Positions 2,448-17,465 of a DNA stretch of 47,897 nt are shown here, piece by piece (the stretch's first letter is position 1; every line of letters begins with the position of its first letter). Under the pieces are notes generated by a model. It was given only the letters and a program-made list of their open reading frames with translations. It made no database searches and was not told where the DNA came from. Made by a program: the position numbers and the translations under genes. Origin of the DNA: a virus (taxonomy: Duplodnaviria > Caudoviricetes); the IMG/VR virus record IMGVR_UViG_3300037470_000256, positions 1-47,897 of that record; one strand, given 5' to 3'.

Positions 2448-3158
2448 ATGGCGCAAGTCTGGGCTACGGGCGTCTGGGCTCCCGGTGTCTGGGCGACCAC
2501 CACATGGGAGGGGTGCGAAGCCGCCGCGATTACCGGCGACGTCACGGTCACCCTTACGGTGGCTGGGACGATGGACCTTACCCGGCACGCAGATATTGCC
2601 GGAGATGTGGTGGTTACGGTGGCGGTGGCGGGCACGATGGACTTTACCCGCCATGCGGACATTGCAGGGGATGTCACCGTCACGCTGGCGGTCGCAGGCA
2701 CCATGCTGTACCGGCGACCGGCCCCGTTGGTGTTGGCGTGGGCAAGTCACCCCAAGTTCTTACTGGCATGGGGCAGTCACCCGAAACTGATTCTAGCGAG
2801 AGTGTCTATGGACGACTTCCTGTATCTCGATAACCCCTACGTCATCAAGTGGACGGCGAAGGAGTACAACACCTCCAACGTGCTGGAAGCGGCAGACGGG
2901 TACACCGTGACGGGGCGGATCTCGCTCACCGCCAGCGGGGCAGTCATTGGCGAATGTAGTGCCACCCTCACGGAACTGGTGGGTGAGGCGGGCACCTACT
3001 CGGGCACCATCACATCCTCCTCGATTACCACAGACCTGACGGCCTACGTAGGGCAGACGGTATTCGAGATCGTAGAGGACAGCGATGGGAACGGCGAGAA
3101 GTCGAAGCGGCTGACCGTGGCCTATCGGTCGGTGGAAGTCGAAGACGGCACCCCCTGA
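2448..3158 (+). CDS. Virion protein with 22-aa and 10-aa tandem repeats and a C-terminal beta domain
   Basis: 236 aa; about 3x IAGDVxVTxAVAGTMDxTRHAD (66-bp period) and 2x LAWxSHPK. Confidence 0.6.
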   Translation: MAQVWATGVWAPGVWATTTWEGCEAAAITGDVTVTLTVAGTMDLTRHADIAGDVVVTVAVAGTMDFTRHADIAGDVTVTLAVAGTMLYRRPAPLVLAWASHPKFLLAWGSHPKLILARVSMDDFLYLDNPYVIKWTAKEYNTSNVLEAADGYTVTGRISLTASGAVIGECSATLTELVGEAGTYSGTITSSSITTDLTAYVGQTVFEIVEDSDGNGEKSKRLTVAYRSVEVEDGTP

Positions 3159-3176
3159 ACTACTCACGGCCATGAG

Positions 3177-3581
3177 GTGAGCACGGTGCAACACTCGGGA
3201 TGGATACTGATCGACCTCATGACGATCCTCGCTCTCGGGGGAGTGGCGTTCGCGACGTTCTTGACGAACGCGCAAGTCGCGGTCAACGCGGGTCCAGTGG
3301 TGCCCCTCTTCTGGATCGCCGGGCCGACGATCACGGTGCTGATCGGGTTGCTGGTCTGGGCGGTGCGGACAATTCAGACCACGCAAATCACGATGGCCGT
3401 GGTGCAGTCGCAGATGGTAGAAGTGACCGCGTTGCGGAAGTGGAAGCACGACGAAGTGGAGCAGTGGCGGCTGGTGATGAACCTGGAGATCGGCGCACTC
3501 AAGGGCAGCCAAGAGGACCACGAGAAGCAGCTAGACAACTTGCATCGCCGGATTGAGCGATTCGAGCAGGAGCGGGCTTAG
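3177..3581 (+). CDS. Membrane protein with two hydrophobic segments and a C-terminal coiled coil (holin/antiholin-like candidate)
   Basis: Two predicted TM stretches, then a charged heptad tail; sits at the head of the lysis cassette. Confidence 0.55.
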   Translation: MSTVQHSGWILIDLMTILALGGVAFATFLTNAQVAVNAGPVVPLFWIAGPTITVLIGLLVWAVRTIQTTQITMAVVQSQMVEVTALRKWKHDEVEQWRLVMNLEIGALKGSQEDHEKQLDNLHRRIERFEQERA

Positions 3582-3715
3582 ACCTCCTCCCGATGGCCGC
3601 ACCGGAGACAGACGTGAACGAGCCGCCAGACCTTGAGGTCGAAGGCCAGGAAGCGAGGCTCCCAGAACCAGTCTCCGAAGAGATGAAAGCGAGTCGGTGT
3701 CATAACAGGTACCAT
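3578..3715 (-). CDS. Small hypothetical protein with HxCxxC motif (not in ORF track)
   Basis: MVPVMTPTRFHLFGDWFWEPRFLAFDLKVWRLVHVCLRCGHREEV (45 aa); fills the gap and its stop overlaps the stop of the convergent gene. Confidence 0.4.
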   Translation of the reverse strand: MVPVMTPTRFHLFGDWFWEPRFLAFDLKVWRLVHVCLRCGHREEV

Positions 3716-3775
3716 GCTCAAGTATCGCAAGCGTAGGGGGTTGGCGCAAGTTCATTCGTCACACAGGGGGTTGGT

Positions 3776-3907
3776 ATGACGATCTCATTGTTTGTCCTCG
3801 CCGCGATCTTGGCGGTGCTGTCCTACATCTCTCCACCGGTGGAGAAGGCGGTGCGGGTGACGGCGTATGCGTTAGTGGTGGTGTATCTGCTCCGGGGGCT
3901 CTTGTGA
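3776..3907 (+). CDS. Small two-TM membrane protein, holin candidate (not in ORF track)
   Basis: MTISLFVLAAILAVLSYISPPVEKAVRVTAYALVVVYLLRGLL (43 aa); RBS AGGGGG; GTGA overlap with the next gene. Confidence 0.6.
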   Translation: MTISLFVLAAILAVLSYISPPVEKAVRVTAYALVVVYLLRGLL

Positions 3908-4251
3908 TCGGGCCGAACACCAGCCAAGTCCTTGAGCCCATCAAGGCGGAGGTGGTGAAGTCGGATGGCGGTGAAGAGAAGTGGGCTGACAAGGTGCGGC
4001 GAGGGTTTGCCGGTATGCTCTTTATCGTGATGGGGATCGGTGTGATTGCTCTCTCGGTGTTCAAGGTCAACACTGATTGGGTGCTGTTGATCTTGTGCTT
4101 GGTGGGCGTGGTGCTAGCCATTCGCGGCGGCAACATCATCGCCAGTGACCTCGCCAAGAACGCGGACCGGCTGACGGTGGCCTTTGTCAAAGACATTGCG
4201 GGAGCGGCGACTCGGGTAGTGCGCGGCGGAAAGAAAGAGGGGGAGGAATGA
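3904..4251 (+). CDS. Two-TM membrane protein, holin candidate
   Basis: 115 aa; two hydrophobic helices and a charged C-terminus; ATGA overlap with the endolysin. Confidence 0.6.
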   Translation: MIGPNTSQVLEPIKAEVVKSDGGEEKWADKVRRGFAGMLFIVMGIGVIALSVFKVNTDWVLLILCLVGVVLAIRGGNIIASDLAKNADRLTVAFVKDIAGAATRVVRGGKKEGEE

Positions 4252-4724
4252 GCCTGTCACAAATCTCTGACCGGCGCAGTCTCGCGCTGGAGGTGTGGCG
4301 ACGACAACTGAACCAGCCTTACATATGGGCGGGCGATGATCCGATTGTCGGGTTTGACTGCTCAGGGTTAGCGCTGGAAGGGTTGAAAGCGGCGGGCATC
4401 GTAGACCGGAACCTGGATACGACGGCGCACAACCTCTTACATGTGACGTTCAAGAACCGGCCACGACTGACGGACCCGAAGGCGATGCGTCCGGGCTGCC
4501 TGATCTTCTGGGACGGGAGTCAGGGGATTCGGCATGTGGAGATAGTCGTGCTGGTGTTACAGGAAACCATTTTCACGATTGGGGCCAGCGGCGGCGGGAG
4601 CAAGACGCCCACGGCGACAGAGGCGGCGAAACAAAACGCCTACACCAAAATCAGACCAGCGGCGGCGGGATGGCTCTGTGCGGTTGATCCGTTCATGGCG
4701 GGCAGCTCGACGGGGCCAGCGTGA
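4248..4724 (+). CDS. NlpC/P60 cysteine-peptidase endolysin
   Basis: PYIWAG...GFDCSGL catalytic Cys motif, PGCLIFW and RHVEI catalytic His; flanked by holin- and spanin-like genes. Confidence 0.9.
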   Translation: MSLSQISDRRSLALEVWRRQLNQPYIWAGDDPIVGFDCSGLALEGLKAAGIVDRNLDTTAHNLLHVTFKNRPRLTDPKAMRPGCLIFWDGSQGIRHVEIVVLVLQETIFTIGASGGGSKTPTATEAAKQNAYTKIRPAAAGWLCAVDPFMAGSSTGPA

Positions 4725-4834
4725 AACAGCCCCCCATTTCTGAGAGGCTGAGTCAGACAGGGCGGGTACCTAGCCCGAGGATGGGCGCTTCCCCACGGCG
4801 TTCCTCTCTATGCCTTTTCCTGTCTGTACGATGA
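4721..4834 (+). CDS. 37-aa bridging ORF across a structured spacer
   Basis: GTG overlaps the endolysin stop (GTGA) and its TGA overlaps the ATG at 4831 (ATGA); the downstream gene has no clear RBS. Confidence 0.4.
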   Translation: MKQPPISERLSQTGRVPSPRMGASPRRSSLCLFLSVR

Positions 4835-5454
4835 AAACTAACTACCTCGTCCTCGGAGTGCTCGGTGCCCTGCTCTTTTGGGTAGGCCACTCCTGCGGGA
4901 AACCCAAAGACGGGCTGACGGTGGCGATAGATACGCTGGCTATTCGGATCAACGTGAGCGATTCCGTGCAGCGAAGCCTACAACCACGGATCGCAGCGGC
5001 CGAGGCCGAGGCCAGTAGGAAAGCACAAGACGCCGTGTCCGCACGTAGCGAGGCCAACAGATTACACGCTGAATCTCAAGGTTTGCGAGATCGTTATTGC
5101 GAGGGTCGCCGTCCTTGTGGTGGACAACGAACGTTGAGCGATTCACTTGTTCCATCTGACTCTCTCCTCGTGGTGGCATACGATACACTCCTCGCGGCTT
5201 ACGATGCCTGCACGCTGGCGGACCAATCATGTCAAGCGGTCGTGGCCCAGAAAGATTCCATCATCGGCGCTGAACGTCAAATCCGGGCCTCCCTTGAAGC
5301 TGTCCGGGACGCGGGGAGAGCGGTCGTGAAAGCGCGGCCGTCGTTTCTATCCCGGATACTTCCTAAGCCGTCCTTTGGGTATGGTGTCACATTGTCAAGG
5401 CTGGACAGGGAGATTCACGACGGTATCCAGTTGGGGCTGACGTGGACGTTTTGA
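4831..5454 (+). CDS. Spanin-like lysis protein (N-terminal membrane anchor, coiled coil, C-terminal beta-hairpin)
   Basis: MKTNYLVLGVLGALLFWVGHSC anchor; Ala-rich helices; ends GYGVTL...GIQLGLTWTF; follows the endolysin. ATG 4831 preferred over 4810. Confidence 0.6.
   Translation: MKTNYLVLGVLGALLFWVGHSCGKPKDGLTVAIDTLAIRINVSDSVQRSLQPRIAAAEAEASRKAQDAVSARSEANRLHAESQGLRDRYCEGRRPCGGQRTLSDSLVPSDSLLVVAYDTLLAAYDACTLADQSCQAVVAQKDSIIGAERQIRASLEAVRDAGRAVVKARPSFLSRILPKPSFGYGVTLSRLDREIHDGIQLGLTWTF
4949..5155 (-). CDS. Mini HNH-motif ORF nested antisense in the spanin-like gene (possibly a remnant)
   Basis: MEQVNRSTFVVHHKDGDPRNNDLANLEI...; AGGAG 8 nt upstream of the ATG. Confidence 0.35.
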   Translation of the reverse strand: MEQVNRSTFVVHHKDGDPRNNDLANLEIQRVICWPRYVRTRRLVLSYWPRPRPLRSVVVGFAARNRSR

Positions 5455-5991
5455 CTTTCGCCGCTTCCACCGTTCTCTATCAGCGGCTCGCGCCTTCTCT
5501 AGGTTGCGGGCTCGCCATGCTCGCATTTTTGCGGCGTGGTGTGCCAGTGACTCACGTCTGGTTTTCCGCTCATTGGCCGCTACACATGGAATACACCGAC
5601 GCCCCGTTTTCCCCTGAGAGTATTCGCCCCCGCATTTCGGACAGTGTGTCTGTCGGGCAAACTTCGCCATCGGGGATTCTCCCCGAAGAATGTTCTCTCG
5701 GTTTGTCACGGGTTCAAGATGGTCTGGATTCACACAGCCGCGATTGCGACAGAGGTGGTCCAAGTCTAGGCCGCCTGGAATCGGTCCTCGGTGTAACTCG
5801 TAGACATGTCTGTGAGCAGGGATCATGTGCTGTGAGGAGCGATATAACTCCTTCACGTAGATGGAGCCATAGCCATCGGCGGATGTACAGCCGACCCACT
5901 GCCAACAGCCATTCTCTTGGATCACATACCCGACTGGGTTGCTCCCTGCTCGACGACTGTCAGAATTGAGTTGAATGAATGCGCCAATCAT
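5395..5991 (-). CDS. HNH homing-type endonuclease
   Basis: CWQWVG...GYG...AHRHVYE...LDHLCRNRGCVNPDHLEPVT..EN, followed by a CxxC...CxxC C-terminal module. Confidence 0.9.
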   Translation of the reverse strand: MIGAFIQLNSDSRRAGSNPVGYVIQENGCWQWVGCTSADGYGSIYVKELYRSSQHMIPAHRHVYELHRGPIPGGLDLDHLCRNRGCVNPDHLEPVTNRENILRGESPMAKFARQTHCPKCGGEYSQGKTGRRCIPCVAANERKTRRESLAHHAAKMRAWRARNLEKARAADRERWKRRKSKRPRQPQLDTVVNLPVQP

Positions 5992-6048
5992 GGTGAAATA
6001 TAATGATTTTCAGAGGAGAAAAGGCGCATTGTTACACCCGGCCATCGG

Positions 6049-6372
6049 CTACGGTGTCTCCCTGTCTGGTGGGGAGTTGAGGACCGGGCCGGTGCTGGCG
6101 TTAGGATGGTCTTTTTGACTTTCGGATTTTTCGCCGTCCAGATAGACACCTGCGGCGATGCGCTCAATACGGGTGTCGTCAATGTACGGCTCTGTCGCAA
6201 GCACGGCTCTGTCGTGGTCGGTCAGCACGACCGATGCTGGGCCAAGACATCCGTGCGCGGCAAGTTTCTCCGCGATATAGCGGTACGGTTGAGCATCCAC
6301 AAAGGAAACACCGACATGGCCCAGCGCCACAACTATGCAATGGTGAAGGGCTTCAACGTTTCGCTCGTTCAT
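6049..6372 (-). CDS. Hypothetical protein, paralog of 24879..25160
   Basis: Shares MNxRNV(E/D)A, AExLAxxGxLGPASxVLTD and ERIAxG with the 24879 gene; GGAG RBS. Confidence 0.7.
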   Translation of the reverse strand: MNERNVEALHHCIVVALGHVGVSFVDAQPYRYIAEKLAAHGCLGPASVVLTDHDRAVLATEPYIDDTRIERIAAGVYLDGEKSESQKDHPNASTGPVLNSPPDRETP

Positions 6373-6387
6373 AACGGGGGGTCTCCA

Positions 6388-7263
6388 ATGAAGGTACTCA
6401 CGCTGCTCTTGCTGCTGGCCTCACCACTCTCTGGTCAGTCGATGGATACCGTCAAGGTGGGGTATGACTCCATCGTGTCGCTCTCCCGCGACTCGATCGG
6501 CCCCACGGTGCACGATACCACCTACCTGGTCACCAAAGATACCATCCTCCGGCTCTGCTGCCGAGACTCGCTGGTGCCCAAACCTGCGCCCCCGGGTCCG
6601 ACACTGCCCGCTGGGGTGACGCTGGTGGCCACACATACCTGCTCCCAGCTTTATGAAGACGGGTTCACCAACCGAAACGGCTCTGCGCGCATCGTCTCCG
6701 ATGCTGGTGGAACCGTCTGCCAAGCCTTCTACCCGGCGGGGTATGAAGGGGGTAGAGGACCAGTACTGGTGGGCCATCCCAGTAAAGGAACGACCGTCTT
6801 TGTCTCGTTCCGGCTGTACATCGACCCGCACTGGCAAGGGCACGGCTCGGGCGTCAACAAGGTGCTGCATTTCTGGATCGGCAACCCGGGGGTCAGTCCG
6901 GGGAATCGGTTGTACTTGTCGGCGCAAGGCAGCGGGACCGGGCTGTTGCAAGCGCAAGTGCGGTTGCAAGGCGTTGCCGAAGATCCGGTCAGTCGGAACT
7001 TGTACAGCCGTCTCTTCATTCCGCGAGGCCAGTGGGTGCGCTGGGAGGTGCTCACCACAGCGAACACGAACGGGCTCGCCAACGGGACAGTTCAGTGGTG
7101 GATTGACGGCGTACAAGCCGGACACGTCACCAACATCCGGTTTACCGCGGGCAGTCCGGTTTTCCATCATGTGGACTGGAACCCAACGTGGGGCGGAATG
7201 GGTGGCACGCTCGTGCAATCGCAGGTCATGCGGATAGACGACTTCGCGATTGCGGTCCGGTAG
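6388..7263 (+). CDS. Secreted polysaccharide-lyase-like / ConA jelly-roll protein
   Basis: Signal peptide MKVLTLLLLLASPLSGQ; motifs RGQWVRWEV, NGTVQWWIDG and NPTWGG; start reassigned from 6106 to ATG 6388. Confidence 0.65.
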   Translation: MKVLTLLLLLASPLSGQSMDTVKVGYDSIVSLSRDSIGPTVHDTTYLVTKDTILRLCCRDSLVPKPAPPGPTLPAGVTLVATHTCSQLYEDGFTNRNGSARIVSDAGGTVCQAFYPAGYEGGRGPVLVGHPSKGTTVFVSFRLYIDPHWQGHGSGVNKVLHFWIGNPGVSPGNRLYLSAQGSGTGLLQAQVRLQGVAEDPVSRNLYSRLFIPRGQWVRWEVLTTANTNGLANGTVQWWIDGVQAGHVTNIRFTAGSPVFHHVDWNPTWGGMGGTLVQSQVMRIDDFAIAVR

Positions 7264-7265
7264 CA

Positions 7266-7367
7266 TCACTTGATCTGCTTGAAGTGATACCAGAGGACGG
7301 CGATCAGGCCGCCCACCAAGACGCCCATGAGAATCCAGTACAGGGGTTCAGGCATCGGTCCGGTCAT
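7266..7367 (-). CDS. 33-aa single-TM peptide
   Basis: MTGPMPEPLYWILMGVLVGGLIAVLWYHFKQIK; ATGA-coupled to the upstream minus-strand gene. Confidence 0.55.
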   Translation of the reverse strand: MTGPMPEPLYWILMGVLVGGLIAVLWYHFKQIK

Positions 7368-7588
7368 GGTCGATCGTGTCTTCGGAGCCACGGGCCGACG
7401 CCAGCCACAACAATGAGGAAGAGTCCGCCGAGCGCCCCGACGATACTCCACGGCACGTTGAGGGGATCGGGGCCGGGGCCACCACCTGACGCCTGGATCG
7501 GGGTGGGTCCCTCTGTCGTGACGGCAACGAAGACGGCCGCGACGAGGGCGAGCCAAATGAGTCCGGTGATGTAGCGAAGGATGGTCAT
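7364..7588 (-). CDS. 74-aa two-TM membrane protein
   Basis: MTILRYITGLIWLALVAAVFVAV...WSIVGALGGLFLIVVAGV; AAGGG upstream. Confidence 0.6.
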   Translation of the reverse strand: MTILRYITGLIWLALVAAVFVAVTTEGPTPIQASGGGPGPDPLNVPWSIVGALGGLFLIVVAGVGPWLRRHDRP

Positions 7589-7617
7589 TTCTCGTTTCCC
7601 TTTAGAAGGAGGCTGTA

Positions 7618-7791
7618 ATGAAAAAGATCGCTCTGTTGTCTCTGTTGGTGCTGGCCTGTGCCTCACCCACAGCCGAGAACCCCAAACCGTCGCTGGACGA
7701 TCAGCATGCCCTGCCGCACAACGGGCCGTGCCATGCCGGCGAAACCGAGACCCAAGGACAAGGCGGTGTCGTGACCTGTAGCGCGGCCTAG
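7618..7791 (+). CDS. 57-aa exported lipoprotein/propeptide (not in ORF track)
   Basis: MKKIALLSLLVLAC-ASPTAENPKPSLDDQHALPHNGPCHAGETETQGQGGVVTCSAA; lipobox-like VLAC; strong RBS AAGGAGG; stop overlaps the TPR gene stop. Confidence 0.75.
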   Translation: MKKIALLSLLVLACASPTAENPKPSLDDQHALPHNGPCHAGETETQGQGGVVTCSAA

Positions 7792-8963
7792 ACTCCTGCC
7801 TGAATCGCTCGGATGTCTAAGTCTACCCATACCTTTTCGAGCCGGGGTTCTTCTCTCGGCTCGGGAAGCGAGGGGTGGACCGCTAACAGCTTCTCCATCC
7901 GCATCACCCACTCACCCAGCATTCCTTTGCCAGGACCGGGATCATAGGCAATGTCTAACGCCTGACGCCATTCTGATGCAGGATTCTCGCCACGGCGTAA
8001 CTCTACTAATCCGAGTCGGTAGTGATAATCACATTGCATGTCCACATCAAACCTGTTGAGACGCCACTGGAGCGTGTCTTTGATATACTCGACCTGCGCC
8101 CAGTCCTGGAGGGCGGAGCAGGTATCCAGCCGTTCAATGAGCGCATTGGTGACGGTGGCCCAGCACTCCGAGCCCGGCGACAGAGGGGAGCCAATCACCA
8201 ACCGCAAGGCAGCGTCGGCCAGTTTGTAGTGCTGACATCCGACAGCACAGATGGCGAGGTTGGCGAAACAATCCCATTGCAGGGTTTTGTCGGTGTGGAG
8301 GTGGGCGGCGTCGTAGAACTTGAGCGCCGCGTCTACCCAGAGGGGCGGGTGCATGTGGGAGAGTACATCGCCGAGGTTGTTGAGCGCCATTGCCCGCAGC
8401 TCGGACAGGTGGTAGCTGTCGGCGGCGGCGGATTCAAAGTAGGTCCGTGCCTTACTGAGGTTCCCCAGTTTTGATGTGACCATGCCCAGCCCGATATGCG
8501 CCCGAACGACCAGCCACGGTGTCTCTGTTTGTCGGCCGAACCGTTCCACTTCATACCAGACATCTTGTGATTCAATAAACCGGGCCTGTTTCCGGTAGAG
8601 GGTAGCCAACTCAATCAACAGGTCCGGCGACGGCTCCTCGGTGAAGGATCGGGCGAGTTCGGCAAAGTAGAGGGCGCATGCGGTCTCATGCTCAACGGTG
8701 GCCAGGTGCCGGATATAAGCCAGGAGTGCGCCGGCGAGCCGGGTGGGGCTGTTCACCGAGTCAATGATGCGGTGAAAGCACTCCACTTCAAGGCTGTTGA
8801 TGGGCAGGCACGCACCGACGGCTTGCCATGCGGCACCCCACGGCGTGGTGCCGAGCAGGGCTTGTGCGATCGTGACCGACGCCACGCTTACCCGTTCATC
8901 ATTCGCAACCCGGACGAGCAGCGGGTGCATGGGCTCACCGTTTCCGATCAGGGCGAGACTCAT
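7788..8963 (-). CDS. Tetratricopeptide-repeat (TPR) protein, 391 aa
   Basis: TPR-like helices (AHIGLGMVTSKLGNLSKARTYFE, AMALNNLGDV, CFANLAIC, DYHYRLGLV); ATG 8963 overlaps the repressor stop (ATGA). Confidence 0.8.
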   Translation of the reverse strand: MSLALIGNGEPMHPLLVRVANDERVSVASVTIAQALLGTTPWGAAWQAVGACLPINSLEVECFHRIIDSVNSPTRLAGALLAYIRHLATVEHETACALYFAELARSFTEEPSPDLLIELATLYRKQARFIESQDVWYEVERFGRQTETPWLVVRAHIGLGMVTSKLGNLSKARTYFESAAADSYHLSELRAMALNNLGDVLSHMHPPLWVDAALKFYDAAHLHTDKTLQWDCFANLAICAVGCQHYKLADAALRLVIGSPLSPGSECWATVTNALIERLDTCSALQDWAQVEYIKDTLQWRLNRFDVDMQCDYHYRLGLVELRRGENPASEWRQALDIAYDPGPGKGMLGEWVMRMEKLLAVHPSLPEPREEPRLEKVWVDLDIRAIQAGV

Positions 8964-9523
8964 CCCGCGTGCTTCTCCCCGTTCGGTTTGGAGGGGACAC
9001 ACTTGGCACGGGCCGAGTCCTGTTGGCTCGCAACGGCGAGGCGGTTGAAAAAGAAGTAGATGTCTTTGGGGTTGGCGGGGGAACCGGAGCGTGTGAGATC
9101 GTCCAGGTACGAGAGGGCGGCTTTGTAAACGACGATAGTGGCGGTCCATTCGGCGGCCGAATCAGGTATGAGCGGCTCGACTAGCGGTGGGATGCCGTCG
9201 GGTCGGTCGGTGGCTTGAGTTGAGACGGGGGGATGATACGGTAACGATTGGTCCTGCCCCTCGCCAGATGGGGACACTGGCGTCTGACTGCCAAGGGTCA
9301 TTCCCGCTGGGAACTCAATGGGTTGCTCACCGGCCCCTTCCTTGAGATAGCCGGTACTGACATCCAGCAGCGCCGCCACCCGTGCGAGATGGACTGGGCC
9401 AGGGACGTAGCCCGCACGCCACCGGCTCACTGAATTGGGCTCAACCGGGACCTGGCCAGCAAACTCAGCCACGCCTACCCCTTTCCGTTTCATTGCCTCT
9501 TTCAGTCGGTCAGCGAACCCCAC
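8960..9523 (-). CDS. CI-like XRE-family repressor (N-terminal HTH, no S24 peptidase domain seen)
   Basis: FADRLKEAMKRKGVGVAEFAGQVPVEPNSVSRWRAG..P....LARVAALLDVSTGYL; GTG start with GGAG RBS; divergent from the Cro-like gene. Confidence 0.85.
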   Translation of the reverse strand: MGFADRLKEAMKRKGVGVAEFAGQVPVEPNSVSRWRAGYVPGPVHLARVAALLDVSTGYLKEGAGEQPIEFPAGMTLGSQTPVSPSGEGQDQSLPYHPPVSTQATDRPDGIPPLVEPLIPDSAAEWTATIVVYKAALSYLDDLTRSGSPANPKDIYFFFNRLAVASQQDSARAKCVPSKPNGEKHAG

Positions 9524-9559
9524 GTTAGGCTCCCGATCCTTCCGGTTTGATTTGCCCAC

Positions 9560-9607
9560 TTGATATCTTTCTCCGGGTATTGTACTGTGTTTGTGTGTTT
9601 GGCGCAA
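9560..9607. promoter_or_regulatory. Overlapping divergent sigma70-type promoters
   Basis: Plus strand: TTGATA(9560-65)-17 nt-TACTGT(9583-88). Minus strand: TTGCGC(9607-02)-17 nt-TACAAT(9584-79). Confidence 0.55.
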
Positions 9608-9615
9608 GTTTGTTT

Positions 9616-9699
9616 CTAACTCCGGGTTAGGTCGCCACCTAACCGTATGTATGACAGGAACATAGGCTAAAGATATGGCAGAATCTAACCGCGAGATAG
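9616..9699. promoter_or_regulatory. Candidate repressor operators
   Basis: CTAAC-N5-GTTAG (9616-30), GGTTAGGT-CGCC-ACCTAACC (9625-44) and CTAAC-N5-GATAG (9685-99). Confidence 0.5.
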
Positions 9700-9887
9700 G
9701 CGAAGAAACGCCGCAACCGAGTGGCCGGATCGGGGTCTCCGAGGCGGCTCATCGGCTCAAGCTCACCTACCACCAGACTCATGCCTTGCTGCTCCGAGGC
9801 ACGCTAGAAGGAGCGAAGGGCGAGGATGGCTGGTACGTGGAAAGCGATTCCGTGGAGCGGTATCTAGCCGCGCAGGGTGCCGCATGA
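9675..9887 (+). CDS. Small HTH DNA-binding protein (Cro/excisionase-like)
   Basis: IGVSEAAHRLKLT....ALLLRGTLEGAK...WYV: MerR/Xis-type wHTH; first gene of the rightward operon. Confidence 0.75.
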   Translation: MAESNREIGEETPQPSGRIGVSEAAHRLKLTYHQTHALLLRGTLEGAKGEDGWYVESDSVERYLAAQGAA

Positions 9888-10702
9888 CTCTCCCTATTCA
9901 CCCACTCTGCGCACTGTCACCCGATATGCCGGACGCACAATTCAAAGAGTTTGCGGCCGACATCGTCGCTAATGGTCAGCGCCAGCCGATCAAACTCTGG
10001 CAGGGTCAAGTGATTGACGGTCGGCACCGACTACGCGCCTGTACTGAATCCGGGTTGGAGCCGGTGACCGAGATGGTGGAGATGGAGGAGTCAGCCTTAC
10101 CGGGCTACGTCCTGTCGCTGAACACGATGCGGAACCACCTCACCCCGGCCTCACGGGCAATGTATGCGGCTGAGGTGGCGGGCCTGGTTCACGGCAGCAA
10201 TCAGTTTCAGAAGAAAGAGGAGACAGATATAACTGCCTCCTCTATCTCTATCCAGGCAGCCGCCGACGCAGTCGGGGTTCACTCCACGACGGTGGACCGC
10301 GCCAAAAAGATCAAACGAGAAGCGGCCCCCGAGGTGACGGACGCCATCCGCAAGGGCAGTCTGAGCCTTCACGCGGCGCGGGAGATCATCAGTGCGGTGC
10401 CAGAGAAGGCCGATCAGCCTGCCGCGCTCAAGAAGGTTCTGGAGGCCAAAGGAACCAAACACAGAGCTAAAACGGCCATCTCAGGTGGGCGGGTCCGTCG
10501 CTCTCCCAAAAAGAATGAACCTCGTGAGGCGTTGATCGACCGCGCCCTCATGCAGGTCGAGACTGGCGTCTCTGTTTTAGACAGTCATGGGAAAGACATC
10601 GCCCCCTCGTCAGAGATGCTCAAGCAGTGGTTGGGTGTCATCACGCGGGCGATGACTTCCCTTCGTCGGTTCCGCTCTCAGATCACTCAGGAGGTTGCAT
10701 GA
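9884..10702 (+). CDS. ParB/Srx N-terminal-domain protein with HTH
   Basis: IHPLC...DIVANGQRQPI...IDGRHRLRAC, then AADAVGVHSTTVDRAKKI HTH. Confidence 0.8.
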   Translation: MTLPIHPLCALSPDMPDAQFKEFAADIVANGQRQPIKLWQGQVIDGRHRLRACTESGLEPVTEMVEMEESALPGYVLSLNTMRNHLTPASRAMYAAEVAGLVHGSNQFQKKEETDITASSISIQAAADAVGVHSTTVDRAKKIKREAAPEVTDAIRKGSLSLHAAREIISAVPEKADQPAALKKVLEAKGTKHRAKTAISGGRVRRSPKKNEPREALIDRALMQVETGVSVLDSHGKDIAPSSEMLKQWLGVITRAMTSLRRFRSQITQEVA

Positions 10703-11520
10703 CAGCCGCACGTACGCCCAACACGCTCAATATGGCGCATGTCGAGTGGCTACCCCTCAAGCGTCTCACGGTGGACGAGCGCATTCAGCGACCTCTCAAT
10801 CAGAACTGGATCAAGCGCACCGCCCCGAACTTCGACCCTGACGCCCTCGGAGCGCTGGAAATCTCGCTGCGAAAAGATGGTCGCTACGTCATCGTGGACG
10901 GCCAGCACCGCAAGGCAATGCTCGAAACGCTCGGCTACCTGGATCAGCTCGCACCGTGCTTAGTGCATCGCGGCCTCACGTTTGAGCAGGAGGCGAAGCT
11001 CTTCGTGAACAAAAACACGATGCGGCGCCCTGAACTTCTGGATTTCTATCTCCAGCGTCTCAACGCGAAAGAGGAATTGGCGGTAGCGATTCACGAAATC
11101 GTCTCTGAGTTTGGTCTGACCATTGGGCGCGGGAACAACGACAAGAACATCCAGGCAATAAAGGCCGTTCAGGTGACATATCTCGGAGATCGGGGAAAGG
11201 GTAGTGGGCGAAACCCCAAGGCGCTGCGAGACACTCTTTGGACGCTGATCGCGGCGTGGGGCTCCGCTTCGGAGGTATTCACGGGCGACGTGCTTGAGGG
11301 GCTCGGTCTGATGTTTCTCCGGGATAACACCACTATCGACCGCAAACTTCTAGCAGAAAAACTCGCCAAACAAGGATCAGTCTCGCGCATTATCGGCCGG
11401 GCGAAAATGGCAAAGGAGACTCACGGTGGATCGGTGGCTCGAAACGTGGCAGGTGTGGCCACTGAATTGTACAACCGTGGCCATCGGGTCAACAAACTCT
11501 CCTCCTGGTGGGCGGAGTGA
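10699..11520 (+). CDS. Second ParB-fold protein (DGQHR type, DUF6551-like)
   Basis: VDERIQRPL...FDPDALG...YVIVDGQHR...EQEAKLF..N; ATG 10699 with GGAGG RBS overlapping the upstream stop. Confidence 0.75.
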   Translation: MTAARTPNTLNMAHVEWLPLKRLTVDERIQRPLNQNWIKRTAPNFDPDALGALEISLRKDGRYVIVDGQHRKAMLETLGYLDQLAPCLVHRGLTFEQEAKLFVNKNTMRRPELLDFYLQRLNAKEELAVAIHEIVSEFGLTIGRGNNDKNIQAIKAVQVTYLGDRGKGSGRNPKALRDTLWTLIAAWGSASEVFTGDVLEGLGLMFLRDNTTIDRKLLAEKLAKQGSVSRIIGRAKMAKETHGGSVARNVAGVATELYNRGHRVNKLSSWWAE

Positions 11521-11597
11521 CCGTCTTTCTCTGGCTGCTGGTGCTCATGGTCTGCTGGGCGTGGCTGTTCAGTGAACTGATGGAGGATGACAAATGA
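11517..11597 (+). CDS. 26-aa single-TM peptide
   Basis: VTVFLWLLVLMVCWAWLFSELMEDDK; stop/start overlaps at both ends. Confidence 0.5.
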   Translation: MTVFLWLLVLMVCWAWLFSELMEDDK

Positions 11598-11710
11598 TTA
11601 GCTGCACGCTGTCGGTGATCGTGGGGGCCATCGCGGGACTTTTAGGGTATGCCTTGGGGCGCACAGTGGAAGGAATCGTCCGGACCTATCGAGAGAAGAG
11701 GGGACAATGA
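11594..11710 (+). CDS. 38-aa single-TM peptide
   Basis: MISCTLSVIVGAIAGLLGYALGRTVEG...; GGAGG RBS; ATGA overlaps. Confidence 0.5.
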   Translation: MISCTLSVIVGAIAGLLGYALGRTVEGIVRTYREKRGQ

Positions 11711-12156
11711 GCGCCGAGAAGTTCGAGCGGATCGTGGAGATGCACGGCGCGTTCGACAAGCGCCATCCCGACCCGAATAAGAACTACGGTATCCACGGAA
11801 TGGAAATCCGCTTTGTGCTCAAGGGGCCACTCGGCGCAGTGCAATTCCTCGTGTTCACCGGCATGCACTTACCGCTCGTCGCCGCAGAGTTGTGGGATCG
11901 GCAGGGAAGTTACAACCCGTTCGAACCGATGGGAGCCGACATCGGGTTTCACTCACCGACACCTCACTACGACTCCCACACGCCGATAGAGGACTGCCCC
12001 TATCTCGACGGTAAGCCGTGTTACTACGACGGCTCGGGACTACAGGCAGAAGAGTTTATGGGGCAGTTCTTGGCGGGCGGTTCTGATGCAGTGTGGCCGA
12101 TGCTGGAGCAGCGGTATCGCACATGGCTGGAAAAGTCTGAGGAGGCCGTCGCATGA
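11707..12156 (+). CDS. Hypothetical phage protein
   Basis: 149 aa; coupled start and stop; protein-like composition (CPYLDGKPCYYDGS). Confidence 0.7.
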   Translation: MSAEKFERIVEMHGAFDKRHPDPNKNYGIHGMEIRFVLKGPLGAVQFLVFTGMHLPLVAAELWDRQGSYNPFEPMGADIGFHSPTPHYDSHTPIEDCPYLDGKPCYYDGSGLQAEEFMGQFLAGGSDAVWPMLEQRYRTWLEKSEEAVA

Positions 12157-12248
12157 CCACCGCTCACGTGGTGGTGCTGCTGTTGACCATACCTGCCATT
12201 CTCGGCGGCTGGTGGATTCAATCTCGGAAGTATCGGAGGCACCAGTGA
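12153..12248 (+). CDS. 31-aa single-TM peptide
   Basis: MTTAHVVVLLLTIPAILGGWWIQSRKYRRHQ; GAGGAGG RBS. Confidence 0.5.
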   Translation: MTTAHVVVLLLTIPAILGGWWIQSRKYRRHQ

Positions 12249-12553
12249 CGTACAAGCCTGGCAGCGATTCCGAAGAGCTGCGCGAATCCGCGGAGGTCTG
12301 GCATGAACAAGGCTGCGTCCTCTGTGGTGGGCCGTCCAATGGATTTCGGTTATGTGGACGTTGTCTCACCGAAGAACAAGACCGAATCGAGCATGCGACG
12401 ACGGAGCCCCCAGCGTTCGGGGTAGGCGCAATGGGCATGTCAGTCTACGATGACGAAGCCCTGTCGATCCACGACGCTGATAAATGCCGATTCATGACCG
12501 AGCCCTGCTCGATTTGCGGGCGATGCGCGGAAGACATTGCGAGGGGCGAATGA
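12245..12553 (+). CDS. Cys-rich hypothetical protein (CxxC pairs)
   Basis: GTG start with GGAGG RBS; CVLC...CGRC and CSICGRC. Confidence 0.6.
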   Translation: MTYKPGSDSEELRESAEVWHEQGCVLCGGPSNGFRLCGRCLTEEQDRIEHATTEPPAFGVGAMGMSVYDDEALSIHDADKCRFMTEPCSICGRCAEDIARGE

Positions 12554-13434
12554 GCGAATCTACTGCCGTTGTCCGATCACACGCCGATGAGCCGCTGACG
12601 ATCGCGCGGCAACCGGAGGCGGATTTCGCCGCCCTCATGAACCTAGCCAAAGCGTTAGTCCCCACCGGGTTCCTGCCTGACCACATCAAGACGGCAGGGC
12701 AGGCGGTGGCGATCATCCTGACGGGGCGGGAGATGGGGGTGGGTCCGATGCAGTCCCTCCGTTCCATCGTCATGGTGAAGGGCAAGCCTACCGTCTCCGC
12801 CGACCTGCAACTGGCGGTGTTCAAGCGGAACGGGGGCAAGGCCACGTTCCTCCATCTGGACGACCAGAGGGCCGTGTTGGAGTTGACGCACCCGAACGGG
12901 GACAGGCATACCGAGACGTTCACGATGGCGGACGCACGGGCGGCAGGGTTGACCAACGAAACCTACCGCAAGTGGCCCAAGGCGATGCTTCGAAGCCGCG
13001 CCATTACCGCCGGGTTGAAGTCGGTAGGGTTTGAACCGTGTGCGGGAGCGTATGACCCGGAGGAGCTGGCCCCGGTCATGGATGATGGGAGGAACGGATC
13101 ACCCCCAAAAGCGGAGGGGCCAACGGAGACTCCGGCCCCAACTATCGCGGCTGATACTCAACCTCTCCGCAACTGTACCCTCCGCAAGCGGGGACGGTTC
13201 TTTGTGGTTGAGGGCGACAACATCCAAGATCACAACGACCTCCTCGCTTCGCTGGGGTGGAAGTGGGACCCAAAGAAGAAGTTCTACTGGCACCCGGAAG
13301 AAGGGGCCGACGAGGCGGCGGACACGGTTGGACTACTGATCCCACCGCCTGAGACGTTGGCGGATTTCCCGAAGGCACTGGAACCAACCGAAGGCGAGAA
13401 GGAACTGGACTCGTTACTGGACGGTGCCAAGTGA
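12550..13434 (+). CDS. recT: RecT/Redbeta-like single-strand annealing protein
   Basis: GFLPDH...AIILTGREMGVGPMQSLRSI...GKP...FTMADARAAGL...YRKWPKAMLRSRAIT pattern of phage SSAPs. Confidence 0.75.
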   Translation: MSESTAVVRSHADEPLTIARQPEADFAALMNLAKALVPTGFLPDHIKTAGQAVAIILTGREMGVGPMQSLRSIVMVKGKPTVSADLQLAVFKRNGGKATFLHLDDQRAVLELTHPNGDRHTETFTMADARAAGLTNETYRKWPKAMLRSRAITAGLKSVGFEPCAGAYDPEELAPVMDDGRNGSPPKAEGPTETPAPTIAADTQPLRNCTLRKRGRFFVVEGDNIQDHNDLLASLGWKWDPKKKFYWHPEEGADEAADTVGLLIPPPETLADFPKALEPTEGEKELDSLLDGAK

Positions 13435-13577
13435 CCGCGCTCCAGTTCTCCCACACGACCCGATTAGGGTGGATCGTCCGCCGGATTGAAGAGGCCAAGG
13501 ACGACATGGAAGTCTGGGCCATCCAACGAGACTTGTTGGTGTGGCTGAAAGAGAAAGCCCGGATCGGCAATAGGTAG
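13431..13577 (+). CDS. 48-aa hypothetical protein
   Basis: GTGA overlap with the SSAP stop; fills the gap. Confidence 0.45.
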   Translation: MTALQFSHTTRLGWIVRRIEEAKDDMEVWAIQRDLLVWLKEKARIGNR

Positions 13578-13603
13578 CCCCGGAAGCCGGTGGAGCTGAT
13601 GCC

Positions 13604-13984
13604 GTGAGTGAGCCGATCCGCTTTCGAGTGGAGGGCAGACCGCCCACCGTCAACGAGATGACCAAGCGCACTCGGCACTGGGGCACGGCCCACTTGCTCA
13701 AGAAAGCCTGGGCTGATCGGGTCATGGTGGCGAGGCAGAACAACCGACTACAGAGAGCCACAGGGAAACGCCGGGTGGACATTGTTGTGATGCTTGGCAA
13801 GGGACAGCGCACAACTGATCCTGATGCCCTCTGGAAGTCCTCACTTGACGCACTCAAGGTCAACTGGCTGCTCGTGGACGACTCCCCGAAGTGGTGCGAG
13901 ATGGGAACCGTGACGTTCAAGGAGCGTGGCTCATTCGTGGAGAAGGTTGGGTGGACCGAGTACATCCTGACGGAGACGGCATGA
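13604..13984 (+). CDS. rusA: RusA-like Holliday junction resolvase
   Basis: PPTVN...DPDALWKSSLDALK..LLVDDS matches the RusA DxDN..K...DAL...DD motif. Confidence 0.8.
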   Translation: MSEPIRFRVEGRPPTVNEMTKRTRHWGTAHLLKKAWADRVMVARQNNRLQRATGKRRVDIVVMLGKGQRTTDPDALWKSSLDALKVNWLLVDDSPKWCEMGTVTFKERGSFVEKVGWTEYILTETA

Positions 13985-14190
13985 CCGCCCGTCATCTCCA
14001 CCTCCTGCCACCCCAAGGAGGATCGGTGAAAGCGTCCCCGGTGCTGCGCTTCCCGGCGAAGTATCGCAGTCTGATGCGGGGCATCTTGCGGCGGGAGATC
14101 GCCCGATTAGAGACGGCGGTGCCGATGGAGGAGTGGATGGTGGATGACGAGGAGGGCTGGATTACCCTGAGATTCGAGCGCGAGCCGTGA
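13981..14190 (+). CDS. Hypothetical protein
   Basis: ATGA/GTGA coupled at both ends. Confidence 0.55.
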   Translation: MTARHLHLLPPQGGSVKASPVLRFPAKYRSLMRGILRREIARLETAVPMEEWMVDDEEGWITLRFEREP

Positions 14191-14561
14191 GACGCTGGCA
14201 CGGGGACGACTTCCCCCCGCCTGATCCTGGGCTCTCCGGGTTGCCCCTCTGGAAAGAATCGCCGCCCGAAGAAGCAAGGCCGCATGTGTTGCCGATTGAC
14301 GGCACACTCACGGCAGAGTACTGGAAATGGCGGGAGTCAGGTATCGGGCAGCGGGTCTACCATGCGTTCTGTTTGGAAGCGATGACCCGGATGAAGCTGG
14401 GCGCGGAGTACATTGGTGCGAAAAGTGTGTGGGAGGCTATCCGGCCTCGGTTTCATCAGGGCTGCGATAACAGGTTTCCCCAATTCGTGAGCCGGGAATG
14501 CGTGGAGGAATACCCGGAGTTGAAGCCGTACTTCAAGTTCAGGATTCGCAAGGTTGTCTAA
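14187..14561 (+). CDS. Hypothetical phage protein
   Basis: 124 aa; IGAKSVWEAIR...NRFPQFVSR...FKFR; coupled start. Confidence 0.65.
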   Translation: MRRWHGDDFPPPDPGLSGLPLWKESPPEEARPHVLPIDGTLTAEYWKWRESGIGQRVYHAFCLEAMTRMKLGAEYIGAKSVWEAIRPRFHQGCDNRFPQFVSRECVEEYPELKPYFKFRIRKVV

Positions 14562-14597
14562 GAAGAAATCGGGGCCGCTGTGTGGCCTACCCTGATT

Positions 14598-14806
14598 GAC
14601 GTGCCGTACCCTGAATGGCGGATAAGGGGGCGGCAACCTCTCTGGCGAGAGGAGACGTAGGGCTGAGAGGGGCGGGCACGGCGACCCGCACACAATAAAA
14701 ATATCGGGCACTTAATCGCAGTAGCCGGGGTGCGTGGTTCAGGCAAAAACGCGCAGCAACCGTTGGCCCGAGGTGCATAGCCGGTTCGACTCCGGCCCTC
14801 AGTCTT
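14598..14806 (+). ncRNA. Candidate structured RNA with a tRNA-type T arm
   Basis: GCCGG-TTCGACT-CCGGC (14780-96); closing helix 14659-67/14798-806; several further hairpins in a gap of about 300 nt without a credible gene. Confidence 0.45.
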
Positions 14807-14858
14807 TCAGTTTGATTTTGTCTTGCAGTGGGGGGAGAGAGGGGAGCCCACCGACCAC

Positions 14859-15203
14859 ATGAGCATCGAACAGCAGCAGCCCGAGGAGGAGAACCCGGAG
14901 CCCCGTTCGTTTCGCTGGGAGGGGAAGCGGTACGCGCTTCACGCTTGCTGGTGGCAGCAATGGGGTGAGTGGTTCACTCGCGGGTGGAACTGGAAAAACT
15001 TCACGCTCATCAATGTGAGTTTTGAGGGCGGCGCATACAAAGGCGGTTACGGCGAACTGACGCTCGGACTGCTGGGACTCAATTGCCAGATTGAAATCTA
15101 CGACCAAGCGGACCGCGCACAGAAGCTTGCGCCCGTCATGGACAGGCTTCTCGAATGGCGCTCACGCGAAGATCGCGAACCGTGGGAGCAGAACCCCCTA
15201 TGA
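14859..15203 (+). CDS. Trp-rich hypothetical protein
   Basis: ATG 14859 after a purine-rich RBS; 114 aa. Confidence 0.6.
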   Translation: MSIEQQQPEEENPEPRSFRWEGKRYALHACWWQQWGEWFTRGWNWKNFTLINVSFEGGAYKGGYGELTLGLLGLNCQIEIYDQADRAQKLAPVMDRLLEWRSREDREPWEQNPL

Positions 15204-15344
15204 GTGATCTCACTACGAGTGGAAATGTCGGTTCGACTCCGACTAGGCGCACAGCCGCCTATCGTCTAACTGTTGCCGGGCTGTCGGCGGCTTTGGGTCG
15301 CACCCAAGGTCAGGACGCCACTAAGGTGAACCCCCTATGAGTGA
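15191..15344 (+). repeat. 17-bp exact direct repeat GAACCCCCTATGAGTGA (15191-15207 and 15328-15344)
   Basis: Two identical copies 137 bp apart, each containing an ATGA stop/start overlap. Confidence 0.95.
15210..15329 (+). ncRNA. Circularly permuted tRNA-like RNA (YrlA/Y-RNA-like topology)
   Basis: Order is T arm, loop-closed acceptor stem, then D arm, with the anticodon-equivalent stem AGTGG/CCACT closing the ends. Confidence 0.65.
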
Positions 15345-15846: not shown

Positions 15847-15851
15847 GACCG

Positions 15852-16193
15852 ATGACCCGAGAGGCTTCGAGGGAACTGGACGCGGAAATCGCGGAGAAGG
15901 TGATGGGCGCGGACATGCCTCGTTTCTTTCCGGGGGCATATCCTCTCCAGCGGCGGGTTGATGCGCCTTACTCCACCGAAATCGAATCTGCCTGGTTAGT
16001 GGTCGAGTCGATGCGCGCCAAGGGGTGGAGTCTCAGCCTTGACGATCTGGGGTACGACGGCGAGGAATGGCGCGTCCGCTTTGAACACAGTGAGCGGCGA
16101 GAACACGACATCAAGGAATCGTGGGTATACGCTGACGCTGTTACCGCCCCACTCGCTATTTGCTTGGCTAGCCTCAAAGCACTGGAAGGGTAA
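15852..16193 (+). CDS. Phage ABA-sandwich-domain protein (BC1872-like)
   Basis: RELDAEIAEKVMG...YSTEIESAWLVVE...TAPLAICLASLKA. Confidence 0.75.
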   Translation: MTREASRELDAEIAEKVMGADMPRFFPGAYPLQRRVDAPYSTEIESAWLVVESMRAKGWSLSLDDLGYDGEEWRVRFEHSERREHDIKESWVYADAVTAPLAICLASLKALEG

Positions 16194-16199
16194 GGACCG

Positions 16200-16388
16200 A
16201 TGACCCTGGAGCAGCCCCGGATGGAGCCACACCCGCCCGTTCTCTCCCCCAAGGAGGCGGCGAAGCTCTGCCGGTGTTCGGTGGCGACCCTGTACCGAGC
16301 CGGGGTGCCGTATGTCGAGCTCACCCCGCACAAGCGGGTGTTCCTACTGGAGAACGTCTTAGCCTGGCTCAAGCAGAGGGCGGCATGA
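16200..16388 (+). CDS. xis: Excisionase-like HTH protein
   Basis: VLSPKEAAKLCRCSVATLYR..VP......RVF....VLAWL; ATGA-coupled to the integrase. Confidence 0.75.
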   Translation: MTLEQPRMEPHPPVLSPKEAAKLCRCSVATLYRAGVPYVELTPHKRVFLLENVLAWLKQRAA

Positions 16389-17464
16389 CGCCACACCGGA
16401 ACAAGAAACGGATTGACGGCAAACTCGTGCCGGTGGGGACACTGGTGTTTGACCGGGTGTTCCGAGGGATTGGACGTATTGCCTTGGCCAGTGGGCAGCC
16501 CGATACGGTGGACGGCCGGCGACGGTTCAAGCAGATGAATCAGATGTTGACCGACCTCTACCAGAACGGCGACGGGGAGATCCTAGCTCGGTTCAAGGCG
16601 GGGGAGATTGCCCCCCTCCAACTCTTTGCCGCATGGAAGGGCAAGCGATTAGACAAACTGCCCACGGTGGAGATGATGCAGCCGCTGGCCGCCACCTTCA
16701 CGGCTTGGGCGAAGGCGGCTCCTACGGGGCCGCATAACAAGGCCCAGCGCCTCACAGCGGGGCGAACGCTGGAGCGGCTGGCGTCGGGGGCCATGGTCGG
16801 CGAGATCGCCCGTGTGGTGGGCACGTACCAGCGGCAGTGTATGACCAAGGGTACCCCATCAGCCTTTAACCACTTTAAGGTGCATTGCCAGCGGTTTATC
16901 GGCCTGACGCTCGGGGAGCATCATCCGATCTATACCCAGCTTACCCGGATCGAATCGCTCAAGGTGACGGTCAAACGGAAGCGGGGTCTGACCCTACTGG
17001 AAGCAACGGCCGTCTGGACGTTCCTGAAAGAGCCCTACCGTCGGGCCTTCCGGGAGTTGTGCTACACCGGCATGCGGCCGAACGAGTATTTCGCCCAGCG
17101 GTGGCAGGTGTTGAATGACCGGATTGAAGTCTACGGCACCAAAACACAGGGAGCCGACCGGGCTATTCCCCTGGTGCAGCCGATTATCGGGGCCGGGATC
17201 ACCCGCCAGCGGCTCCGCTATGCGCTAGAGAAGTACCCGGAGATGACGGTGGAGCCTTATACAGCCCGGCGCACTTTCATGCACTGGATGGAAGAAGCGG
17301 GGATTCCCCGCGCGCGGCGGAAGATGTACATGGGGCACGGGGTGAAGGACGTGAGCGACCTGTATGAGCGGAGCCACCATACCGCCTACCTGAAAGAAGA
17401 TGCGGCGAAACTGCGGGTATTCTTAGGGGTCGCTGGCGTTCAACTGATGAGTGCCAGGCGGTAA
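16385..17464 (+). CDS. int: Tyrosine integrase
   Basis: YTGMRPNE (R), GTKT (K), YTARRTF (HxxR position), MGHG (H), LYER (Y); ATG 16385 with GAGG RBS. Confidence 0.88.
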   Translation: MTPHRNKKRIDGKLVPVGTLVFDRVFRGIGRIALASGQPDTVDGRRRFKQMNQMLTDLYQNGDGEILARFKAGEIAPLQLFAAWKGKRLDKLPTVEMMQPLAATFTAWAKAAPTGPHNKAQRLTAGRTLERLASGAMVGEIARVVGTYQRQCMTKGTPSAFNHFKVHCQRFIGLTLGEHHPIYTQLTRIESLKVTVKRKRGLTLLEATAVWTFLKEPYRRAFRELCYTGMRPNEYFAQRWQVLNDRIEVYGTKTQGADRAIPLVQPIIGAGITRQRLRYALEKYPEMTVEPYTARRTFMHWMEEAGIPRARRKMYMGHGVKDVSDLYERSHHTAYLKEDAAKLRVFLGVAGVQLMSARR

Positions 17465-17465
17465 T

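Follow-up and report, generated by a model that had tools for sequence, protein, structure and literature searches.

IMG/VR record IMGVR_UViG_3300037470_000256 is a 47,897-nucleotide (nt) phage DNA of the class Caudoviricetes, which was analysed over its whole length (termed the window). Next to its repressor gene it carries a gene for a tetratricopeptide repeat (TPR) protein, and this gene overlaps tail-to-tail with a small open reading frame (ORF) that is predicted to encode a lipopeptide. The arrangement is real and non-random, and is a peptide–TPR signalling variant inside a phage immunity operon for which a mechanism is proposed below. The TPR protein and the lipopeptide are, with good probability, a functional pair. 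Very likely the phage captured this pair from a host as a peptide-receptor cassette; the usual AraC partner is absent, and a repressor gene lies upstream. The three genes at the center of this proposal are as follows.

7618..7791 (+): predicted 57-amino acid (aa) lipopeptide precursor, with a signal, lipobox (Cys14), Pro-rich linker and predicted Cys38–Cys54 loop
7788..8963 (−): 391-aa cytoplasmic Rap-like TPR protein without a helix-turn-helix (HTH) domain; its start codon shares bases with the stop codon of the repressor gene (ATGA)
8960..9523 (−): CI-like repressor, 187 aa from GTG, with an N-terminal HTH, a low-complexity linker and a short helical C-terminal part

The predicted lipopeptide open reading frame

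The stop codons of the TPR gene and the convergent 57-aa ORF overlap in the sequence CTAG at positions 7788–7791, as the first-pass annotation of this DNA had described. That annotation also considered the 57-aa ORF to have been missed by the ORF track, but it is not generally missed, as it is present in both the JGI and the Logan gene calls. The strong ribosome binding site (RBS) noted at the time is borne out by a 7-nt match, in the top class of the genome. Six of the 647 small ORFs display a lipobox pattern, and among these the 57-aa ORF alone has an RBS; its codon-position GC pattern resembles that of real genes.

Pattern and hydrophobicity point to a lipoprotein signal. The lipobox Cys at position 14 is followed by two further Cys, at positions 38 and 54, in agreement with the initial description, and the Leu at position −2 is slightly off the usual lipobox consensus. 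A search of the Atlas with the 57-aa peptide gave no match at ≥0.9.

A profile built from 15 peptides of the host cassettes described in the next section places the phage ORF first among the 647 small ORFs (E-value = 0.0022; the next has 0.16). The phage Cys loop has 15 residues between the Cys, compared to 9–13 in the tails encoded by host cassettes.

The host TPR–lipopeptide–AraC cassette

Two plasmids of Gemmatirosa kalamazoonensis carry related genes. On each plasmid, the sole match of the phage TPR profile is a TPR protein of 410–450 aa with a convergent lipopeptide gene. Among the 15 frames bearing TPR_12 on both plasmids these cassette TPRs rank first and second (33.3 and 19.4 bits, the others ≤10.0 bits). 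A convergent lipopeptide is present beside both of them (2/2), and beside 1/13 of the other frames, where it is a spurious-looking pattern match. The background of the lipopeptide pattern is 0.011–0.029 per 460 nt (1%–3%).

A profile of 32/34 relatives of the two plasmid TPRs yielded 30 metagenome loci, of which 24 are assessable; four were left out because they run off the contig end, one because it has 122 nt downstream and one because its frame is broken. A convergent lipopeptide is found in 21 of the 24 loci (19 are intact and lie at a distance of 13–98 nt, one is cut at its 5′ end and one is represented by its tail only), and three loci have none. The 19 intact loci represent 13 distinct sequences, several of them close kin, and the counts are therefore not independent. 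The first-pass annotation would have given up the pairing had TPR homologs generally lacked a neighboring exported ORF; for the wider family the outcome favors it. Its two caveats, the convergent orientation and the lipidation, turn out to be the norm of this wider family.

The tails of the cassette peptides display either Cys loops or an ending of PW plus one residue, and two lineages have two or three copies of the PW-ending motif. Tandem repeats like those of some cassette tails are also reported for RRNPP propeptides (PMC10075063). Locus L011 (1595–1865) has three tandem copies of the short PW-ending motif and locus L012 (4991–5198) has two, in the manner of duplicated autoinducers.

As judged by eye, the third gene in 19/19 intact loci encodes a regulator of the receiver-like kind and stands head-to-head with the gene for the peptide; the full-length regulators tested (2/2) match AraC HTH_18. 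In loci L035 (after position 1218), L036 (after 1874) and L037 (after 5002) the regulator is directly 3′ of the TPR gene and the lipopeptide gene is gone; sister loci L019 and L029 retain it, and L035, L036 and L037 may encode orphan receptors. Ahead of the TPR gene, 18 host loci showed no HTH gene like that of the phage repressor; the coupling to a repressor is thus specific to the phage among the loci read. No description of the TPR–lipopeptide–AraC cassette was found among the papers listed by the literature searches, whose reach did not extend to most subscription journals.

These loci bear on whether the 57-aa ORF might be an o-spanin or a chance neighbor unrelated to the TPR gene, which is very improbable. 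The ORF comes after the lysis region on the strand of the late genes, and is Pro-rich with a lipobox. However, o-spanin (Rz1-like) genes are nested in or adjoin the i-spanin gene in the lysis cassette. The 57-aa ORF does neither; about 2.2 kb and two large genes (HNH and lyase-fold) separate it from the spanin-like gene at 4810–5454. The o-spanin role, entertained earlier as one that would overturn the signalling proposal, finds no support in this position. The layout is also common to non-phage homologs, far above the 1%–3% background, and the conserved pairing largely refutes this explanation.

The spanin-like gene itself (4810–5454, +) has a lipobox-like N-terminus and a beta-strand-like C-terminus that ends in Phe. 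It is followed by an antisense HNH endonuclease gene (5395–5991, −) and by a 47-aa ORF (5975–6118, +) that is similar to the last 35 residues of the spanin-like protein. Around the stop codons of the two, 16 of 18 bases match. The arrangement resembles the outcome of a homing insertion in which the end of a gene was duplicated.

Relationship of the phage TPR protein to Gemmatimonadota proteins

Five close homologs of the phage TPR protein were found, with 40%–60% identity, all of them metagenomic. Among 1.84 billion representatives, a search with the profile found 11 matches with E ≤ 1e-30, together with many single-stretch matches of 400–447 aa. Ten clusters were looked up; four have taxon-named members and every one of these is assigned to Gemmatimonadota or Gemmatimonadales.

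The group of 15 phage-like TPR sequences aligns with 41 full-length matches over 371 columns (hhalign probability 100, E = 9.4e-66), an alignment that takes in the N-terminus and the C-terminal helix. The 41-member group in turn aligns with the cassette TPRs over 326 columns (probability 99.6, E = 1.5e-23). A direct comparison of a six-sequence phage profile with the cassette TPRs gives E = 1.1e-10 over 169 columns. With the deeper, 15-sequence profile 17/18 cassette TPRs score above both controls, which are two generic TPR proteins found in the genome-contig search for close homologs. In the Atlas, a cluster from Gemmatimonadota is structurally the closest (TM 0.78 over residues 8–391); others are at ≤0.69 and have shorter spans.

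Because the taxon-named TPR relatives and the Atlas structural matches fall in this phylum, the host is likely a diderm Gemmatimonadota bacterium, as judged from this one gene family. This agrees with the diderm host that had been thought probable from the start.

The closest phage-like homologs form their own long branch and are mostly shorter than the host family. The tree was tried as a guide to co-evolution and to placement of the phage, and was rejected: TPRs of the PW type and of the Cys-loop type do separate, but related sequences carry the same label and the branch leading to the phage is very long. Loci of close homologs were found neither among viral contigs (with queries that included the ParB-like gene and the repressor) nor among metagenome contigs; the portal query in viral contigs yielded two distant matches with 33% identity. 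No close homologs were detected by tblastn in INPHARED phages or PLSDB.

Fold of the TPR protein

The phage protein had been described as consisting entirely of TPRs. This wording is loose. The AlphaFold2 model, obtained with a six-sequence alignment, is all-helical with 20 helices (predicted local distance difference test (pLDDT) = 88.5; predicted TM-score (pTM) = 0.83), and TPR-solenoid matches cover about residues 40–365, followed by a Pro-rich linker and a C-terminal helix. TPR_12, however, is matched at residues 116–180 only (E = 1e-6), below the Pfam curated cut-off. The protein matches no HTH family in Pfam, PHROGs or NCBIfam, and no signal or transmembrane segment was detected in it or in seven homologs.

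A search of the PDB with the TPR sequence gave nothing at E ≤ 1. The comparison with RRNPP structures that was suggested at the outset gave a divided result. Rap, NprR, PlcR and AimR are absent among the Foldseek matches listed for PDB and BFVD. VIA-align, an exhaustive structure comparison against 48,161 chains, shows RapI to be the best bacterial fold match (rank 3, Z = 20.8, 299 aligned residues, root mean square deviation (rmsd) 4.2), followed by RapH–Spo0F (rank 4, Z = 20.1, 277 aligned, rmsd 4.7). The RappLS20 structure 6t3h has Z = 18.7 (309 aligned, rmsd 7.2), Rap of phage phi105 has Z = 18.3, and NprR, AimR and PlcR have Z = 16.4, 15.7 (rmsd 8.1) and 14.4, respectively. Judged by the fold of its model, the protein is a TPR superhelix of the peptide-binding type with Rap as nearest bacterial match. 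As to common descent with Rap, NprR, PlcR and AimR, there is no sequence match in the PDB and the fold scores are Z = 14–21, with the eukaryotic proteins LGN and Pins higher.

Asn168, Asn196, Asn235 and Asn273 are kept in 11–14 of 15 close homologs. Such conservation is expected for groove residues that hold a peptide backbone. A complex prediction of the TPR protein (six-row alignment) with peptide residues 26–57 scored 0.00 in two runs, and counts neither for nor against binding.

The repressor and its putative operators

The repressor and TPR genes overlap by the ATGA at 8960–8963. The two sequences below accompany the repressor.

9514..9699 (no strand): four operator-like palindromes, CTAAC-N5-GTTAG, at 9514, 9616, 9639 and 9685 with 1, 0, 2 and 1 mismatches
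9675..9887 (+): cro/excisionase-type HTH gene, divergent from the repressor, with which the early lytic operon begins; it matches HTH_17 below the cut-off (E = 2.5e-4)

The HTH of the repressor matches PHROG repressor families (E = 6e-7 to 3e-6), and an alternative gene call gives a chain length of 199 aa. Its single-sequence model is unusable (pLDDT 39). There is no Pfam match to S24 or to any other peptidase domain; together with the overlap this upholds the earlier description of a repressor that lacks a recognisable autocleavage domain and is coupled to the 391-aa gene.

The palindromes span the starts of the repressor and cro genes, and all three sites in the genome with ≤1 mismatch are located here. 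The motif was derived from 9514–9699 itself, and at two mismatches the nine sites found genome-wide are the number expected by chance; thus only the clustering of the palindromes is informative. Two tandem ParB-like genes are directly 3′ of cro (9884–11520, +), the second displaying DUF6551 and a weak DGQHR/DndB-like match; the genome also has an integrase gene.

Small membrane open reading frames of the probable repressor operon

Two further ORFs continue on the strand of the TPR gene.

7364..7588 (−): 74-aa ORF containing two hydrophobic segments; it is head-to-head with the gene for the lipopeptide, and 29 nt separate the ATGs
7266..7367 (−): 33-aa ORF with a single hydrophobic segment, overlapping the stop of the 74-aa ORF

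The repressor operon likely ends with the 33-aa ORF. Since these ORFs continue on the TPR strand, the lipopeptide gene is antisense inside the likely repressor operon. The 74-aa ORF occupies the position of the AraC gene in the host cassettes. The AraC gene is absent from the third position in the phage, and the regulator coupled to the TPR gene is the repressor. Library scans gave no family match for the 74-aa and 33-aa ORFs, which are candidates for superinfection exclusion. At the tail-to-tail junction of the lyase-fold gene with the 33-aa ORF is an inverted repeat (7248–7305), with 24-nt arms and about −26 kcal/mol. It may be a two-way terminator, though it has no U tract.

These ORFs raise the alternative of an exclusion or abortive operon resembling lambda cI–rexA–rexB, in which the TPR protein would sense a superinfecting phage or stress and trigger the 74-aa and 33-aa proteins, the lipoprotein either blocking a surface receptor or being incidental. 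The repressor, TPR and two membrane ORFs are on the same strand and closely packed, and small lipoprotein exclusion factors and rexAB are precedents. Yet PADLOC, run on seven proteins, gave no meaningful match, just weak generic TPR and HTH matches. Such an operon also leaves unexplained why chromosomal homologs without the membrane ORFs keep a convergent lipopeptide. This alternative is considered distinctly unlikely.

Proposed mechanism

By analogy with Rap/Phr, the phage pair may be a density switch that acts on the phage's own repressor, a reading that is offered tentatively as it falls somewhat short of an even chance. The repressor is favored as the target because the genes are coupled, no cleavage domain is detected, the AraC partner is absent and RappLS20 provides a precedent.

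One coupled transcript would yield the repressor and the TPR protein together. Peptide-free TPR protein would bind the C-terminal part of the repressor and take it off the four operators, as RappLS20 does with Rco, which would favor lysis. This action would replace autocleavage of the RecA type. The lipopeptide would be made from the opposite strand, that of the late and lysis genes, then exported and lipidated, and its Cys-looped tail clipped off. Where the phage is common the tail would accumulate, re-enter cells and bind in the TPR groove (Asn168, 196, 235, 273); with the TPR protein off, lysogeny would be favored. The sign of the TPR action on the repressor is a guess by analogy, and a peptide-activated co-repressor would give the same population logic.

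Several observations weigh against this mechanism. The top rows of Foldseek for the TPR model are LGN–peptide complexes, and VIA-align ranks LGN (Z = 23.7) and Pins (Z = 23.0) above Rap; having the TPR fold in common does not establish a function. Scores of the six-sequence profile on the cassette TPRs (17–34.5 bits) overlap that of a generic kinase-TPR control (25.8 bits). The match of the phage ORF to the peptide profile is carried by its signal and lipobox: the mature part ranks 49th, and the tail alone, which shares the two-Cys layout with host tails, ranks 93rd, the tails being diverse within the family. Among the loci read, which do not extend to the 14 closest phage-like homologs or to the 41-member group, the link between repressor and TPR gene is seen in this one genome. 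A cytoplasmic receptor with an exported, lipid-anchored, disulfide-looped ligand demands clipping and import across two membranes. Finally, the target in the host cassette is likely the receiver-like/AraC protein, not a CI-type HTH protein, and three loci of two lineages keep the TPR and regulator genes without the peptide gene.

The last two points lead to a different target. The pair may be a true signal and receptor that act on a host receiver-like/AraC regulator, so that the phage manipulates or eavesdrops on its host during lysogeny, and the place in the repressor operon only ensures expression in the lysogen. The constant presence of the regulator as third gene, its remaining adjacent to the TPR gene after loss of the peptide gene, and the fourth rank of RapH–Spo0F, a Rap bound to a receiver domain, are in accordance with this, and phage-borne Rap–Phr pairs acting on host regulators are known. 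On the other side, the sharing of 4 nt between stop and start suggests that repressor and TPR protein are made in matched amounts, a repressor with no detected autocleavage domain needs another switch, and the closest homologs have their own long branch and mostly a shorter chain than the host family. A host target, the main alternative, is thus regarded as unlikely, though to be taken seriously.

The two-membrane crossing would not be needed if sensing took place within the cell, i.e. if the TPR protein bound the precursor before its export, or the signal peptide once released, and reported the state of export or of the envelope, with no cell-to-cell signal. Enterococcal pheromones are cut from lipoprotein signal peptides, and it is in its signal and lipobox that the phage peptide resembles the family. 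However, the patterned, repeated and clade-specific part of the family is the C-terminal tail, and the paired Cys suggest a function after export. Sensing within the cell appears quite improbable.

Comparison with known systems

The nearest parallel to action on the repressor is the RappLS20–Phr*pLS20–RcopLS20 system of Bacillus subtilis pLS20. RappLS20 detaches Rco from DNA and Phr* inactivates RappLS20 (PMC7641744). Like the phage system as proposed, it has an HTH-less TPR protein of the Rap type on a mobile element, a repressor as target and an adjacent inactivating peptide (PMC7641744). It differs in its Gram-positive host and in its control of conjugation, and the phage TPR protein has about 10% identity to RappLS20. 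In addition, the phage peptide gene is convergent and of the lipoprotein type with a Cys loop, and the phage TPR gene is coupled to the repressor gene.

Phr peptides are short and linear, and are imported by Opp in monoderms. The Rap–Phr pairs (RapI, RapH, phi105 Rap) resemble the phage pair in size, in the TPR solenoid without HTH and in the adjacent small secreted ORF, but the phage TPR has no detectable sequence similarity to any solved protein.

The RRNPP criteria call for a receptor of 250–500 aa with TPRs and a propeptide of 10–100 aa whose gene is within −60 to 400 bp (PMC10075063). The phage pair corresponds to these in size, TPR content and adjacency (391 aa, 57 aa and a 4-nt overlap). 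Propeptides at the strict level are Sec/SPI, and the relaxed level admits any secretion tag, including that of lipoproteins (same source). From its sequence, the phage peptide would, as a predicted lipoprotein, pass at the relaxed level and probably fail at the strict one.

The arbitrium system AimR–AimP–AimX–AimC is likewise a phage peptide with a TPR receptor beside a repressor–cro switch, with lysis–lysogeny as the output proposed, which it attains by way of AimX and AimC (bioRxiv 10.1101/2025.11.23.689978); in the window the repressor and the cro-like gene are also adjacent to the TPR gene. AimR binds DNA and acts via a small antirepressor, AimX, whereas the phage TPR has no HTH match, and AimR is a weaker fold match than Rap. 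Since its receptor is without an HTH, the phage system is not arbitrium. A 2026 review places arbitrium-like systems in Gram-positive hosts (PMC13389391).

The Gemmatimonadota cassette shares with the phage a homologous TPR, a lipopeptide gene that meets the TPR gene tail-to-tail, a head-to-head third gene on the same strand as the TPR gene and, as one of its tail types, the Cys loop. The phage has two small membrane ORFs in place of AraC and a CI-like repressor coupled upstream; its TPR is about 40 aa shorter, its loop is longer and its tail is unmatched by the tail profile.

The phage genome

The window is a whole circular phage genome, and its first 127 bases are repeated at its end. The record is classed as having direct terminal repeats and as 100% complete. 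Terminase, portal and capsid genes of the lambda type are present (Pfam). Outside the module described above are the following genes.

16200..17464 (+): excisionase-like gene (phrog_66) and tyrosine integrase (phrog_1, E = 1.2e-7)

The integrase and the excisionase-like gene indicate that the phage is temperate. Among the sequencing runs listed, it is contained in one DNA run only, a sediment metagenome that may be its source, and in no RNA run; no variants or integration joint were seen in that DNA run in the region 3000–19000. Scans gave no tRNA or Rfam matches and no sigma-70 promoter match, and the two terminator-like sites found are at chance level.

An S49 protease and the major capsid protein are fused as one 833-aa ORF (33016–35517, +). 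Domains with a polysaccharide-lyase fold are found at 6388–7263 (+), in a protein that looks secreted and is encoded after the lysis region, and at 45024–47429 (+), at the end of a tail protein with Ig repeats.

Implications

In the literature searched, all descriptions of peptide-guided lysis–lysogeny and of TPR peptide receptors in the cytoplasm come from Gram-positive bacteria and their elements. It is possible, though rather doubtful, that phages of diderm Gemmatimonadota have evolved lysis–lysogeny communication independently of arbitrium via a captured host cassette. Here a lipid-anchored precursor would shed a disulfide-looped peptide able to pass both membranes, and this peptide would switch a Rap-like protein whose direct target is a non-cleavable CI repressor. 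If true, phage communication would extend across the membrane divide into a diderm phylum often encountered in soils and sediments, and a lipoprotein precursor with a looped tail would imply an undescribed route of clipping and import. The module, with three genes and four operators, is compact enough for work in E. coli or in vitro, where the uncultured host is not needed. Should the link to the repressor fail, a signalling pair of the host type on a phage would still be a sign that the phage interferes with a signalling system not described before.

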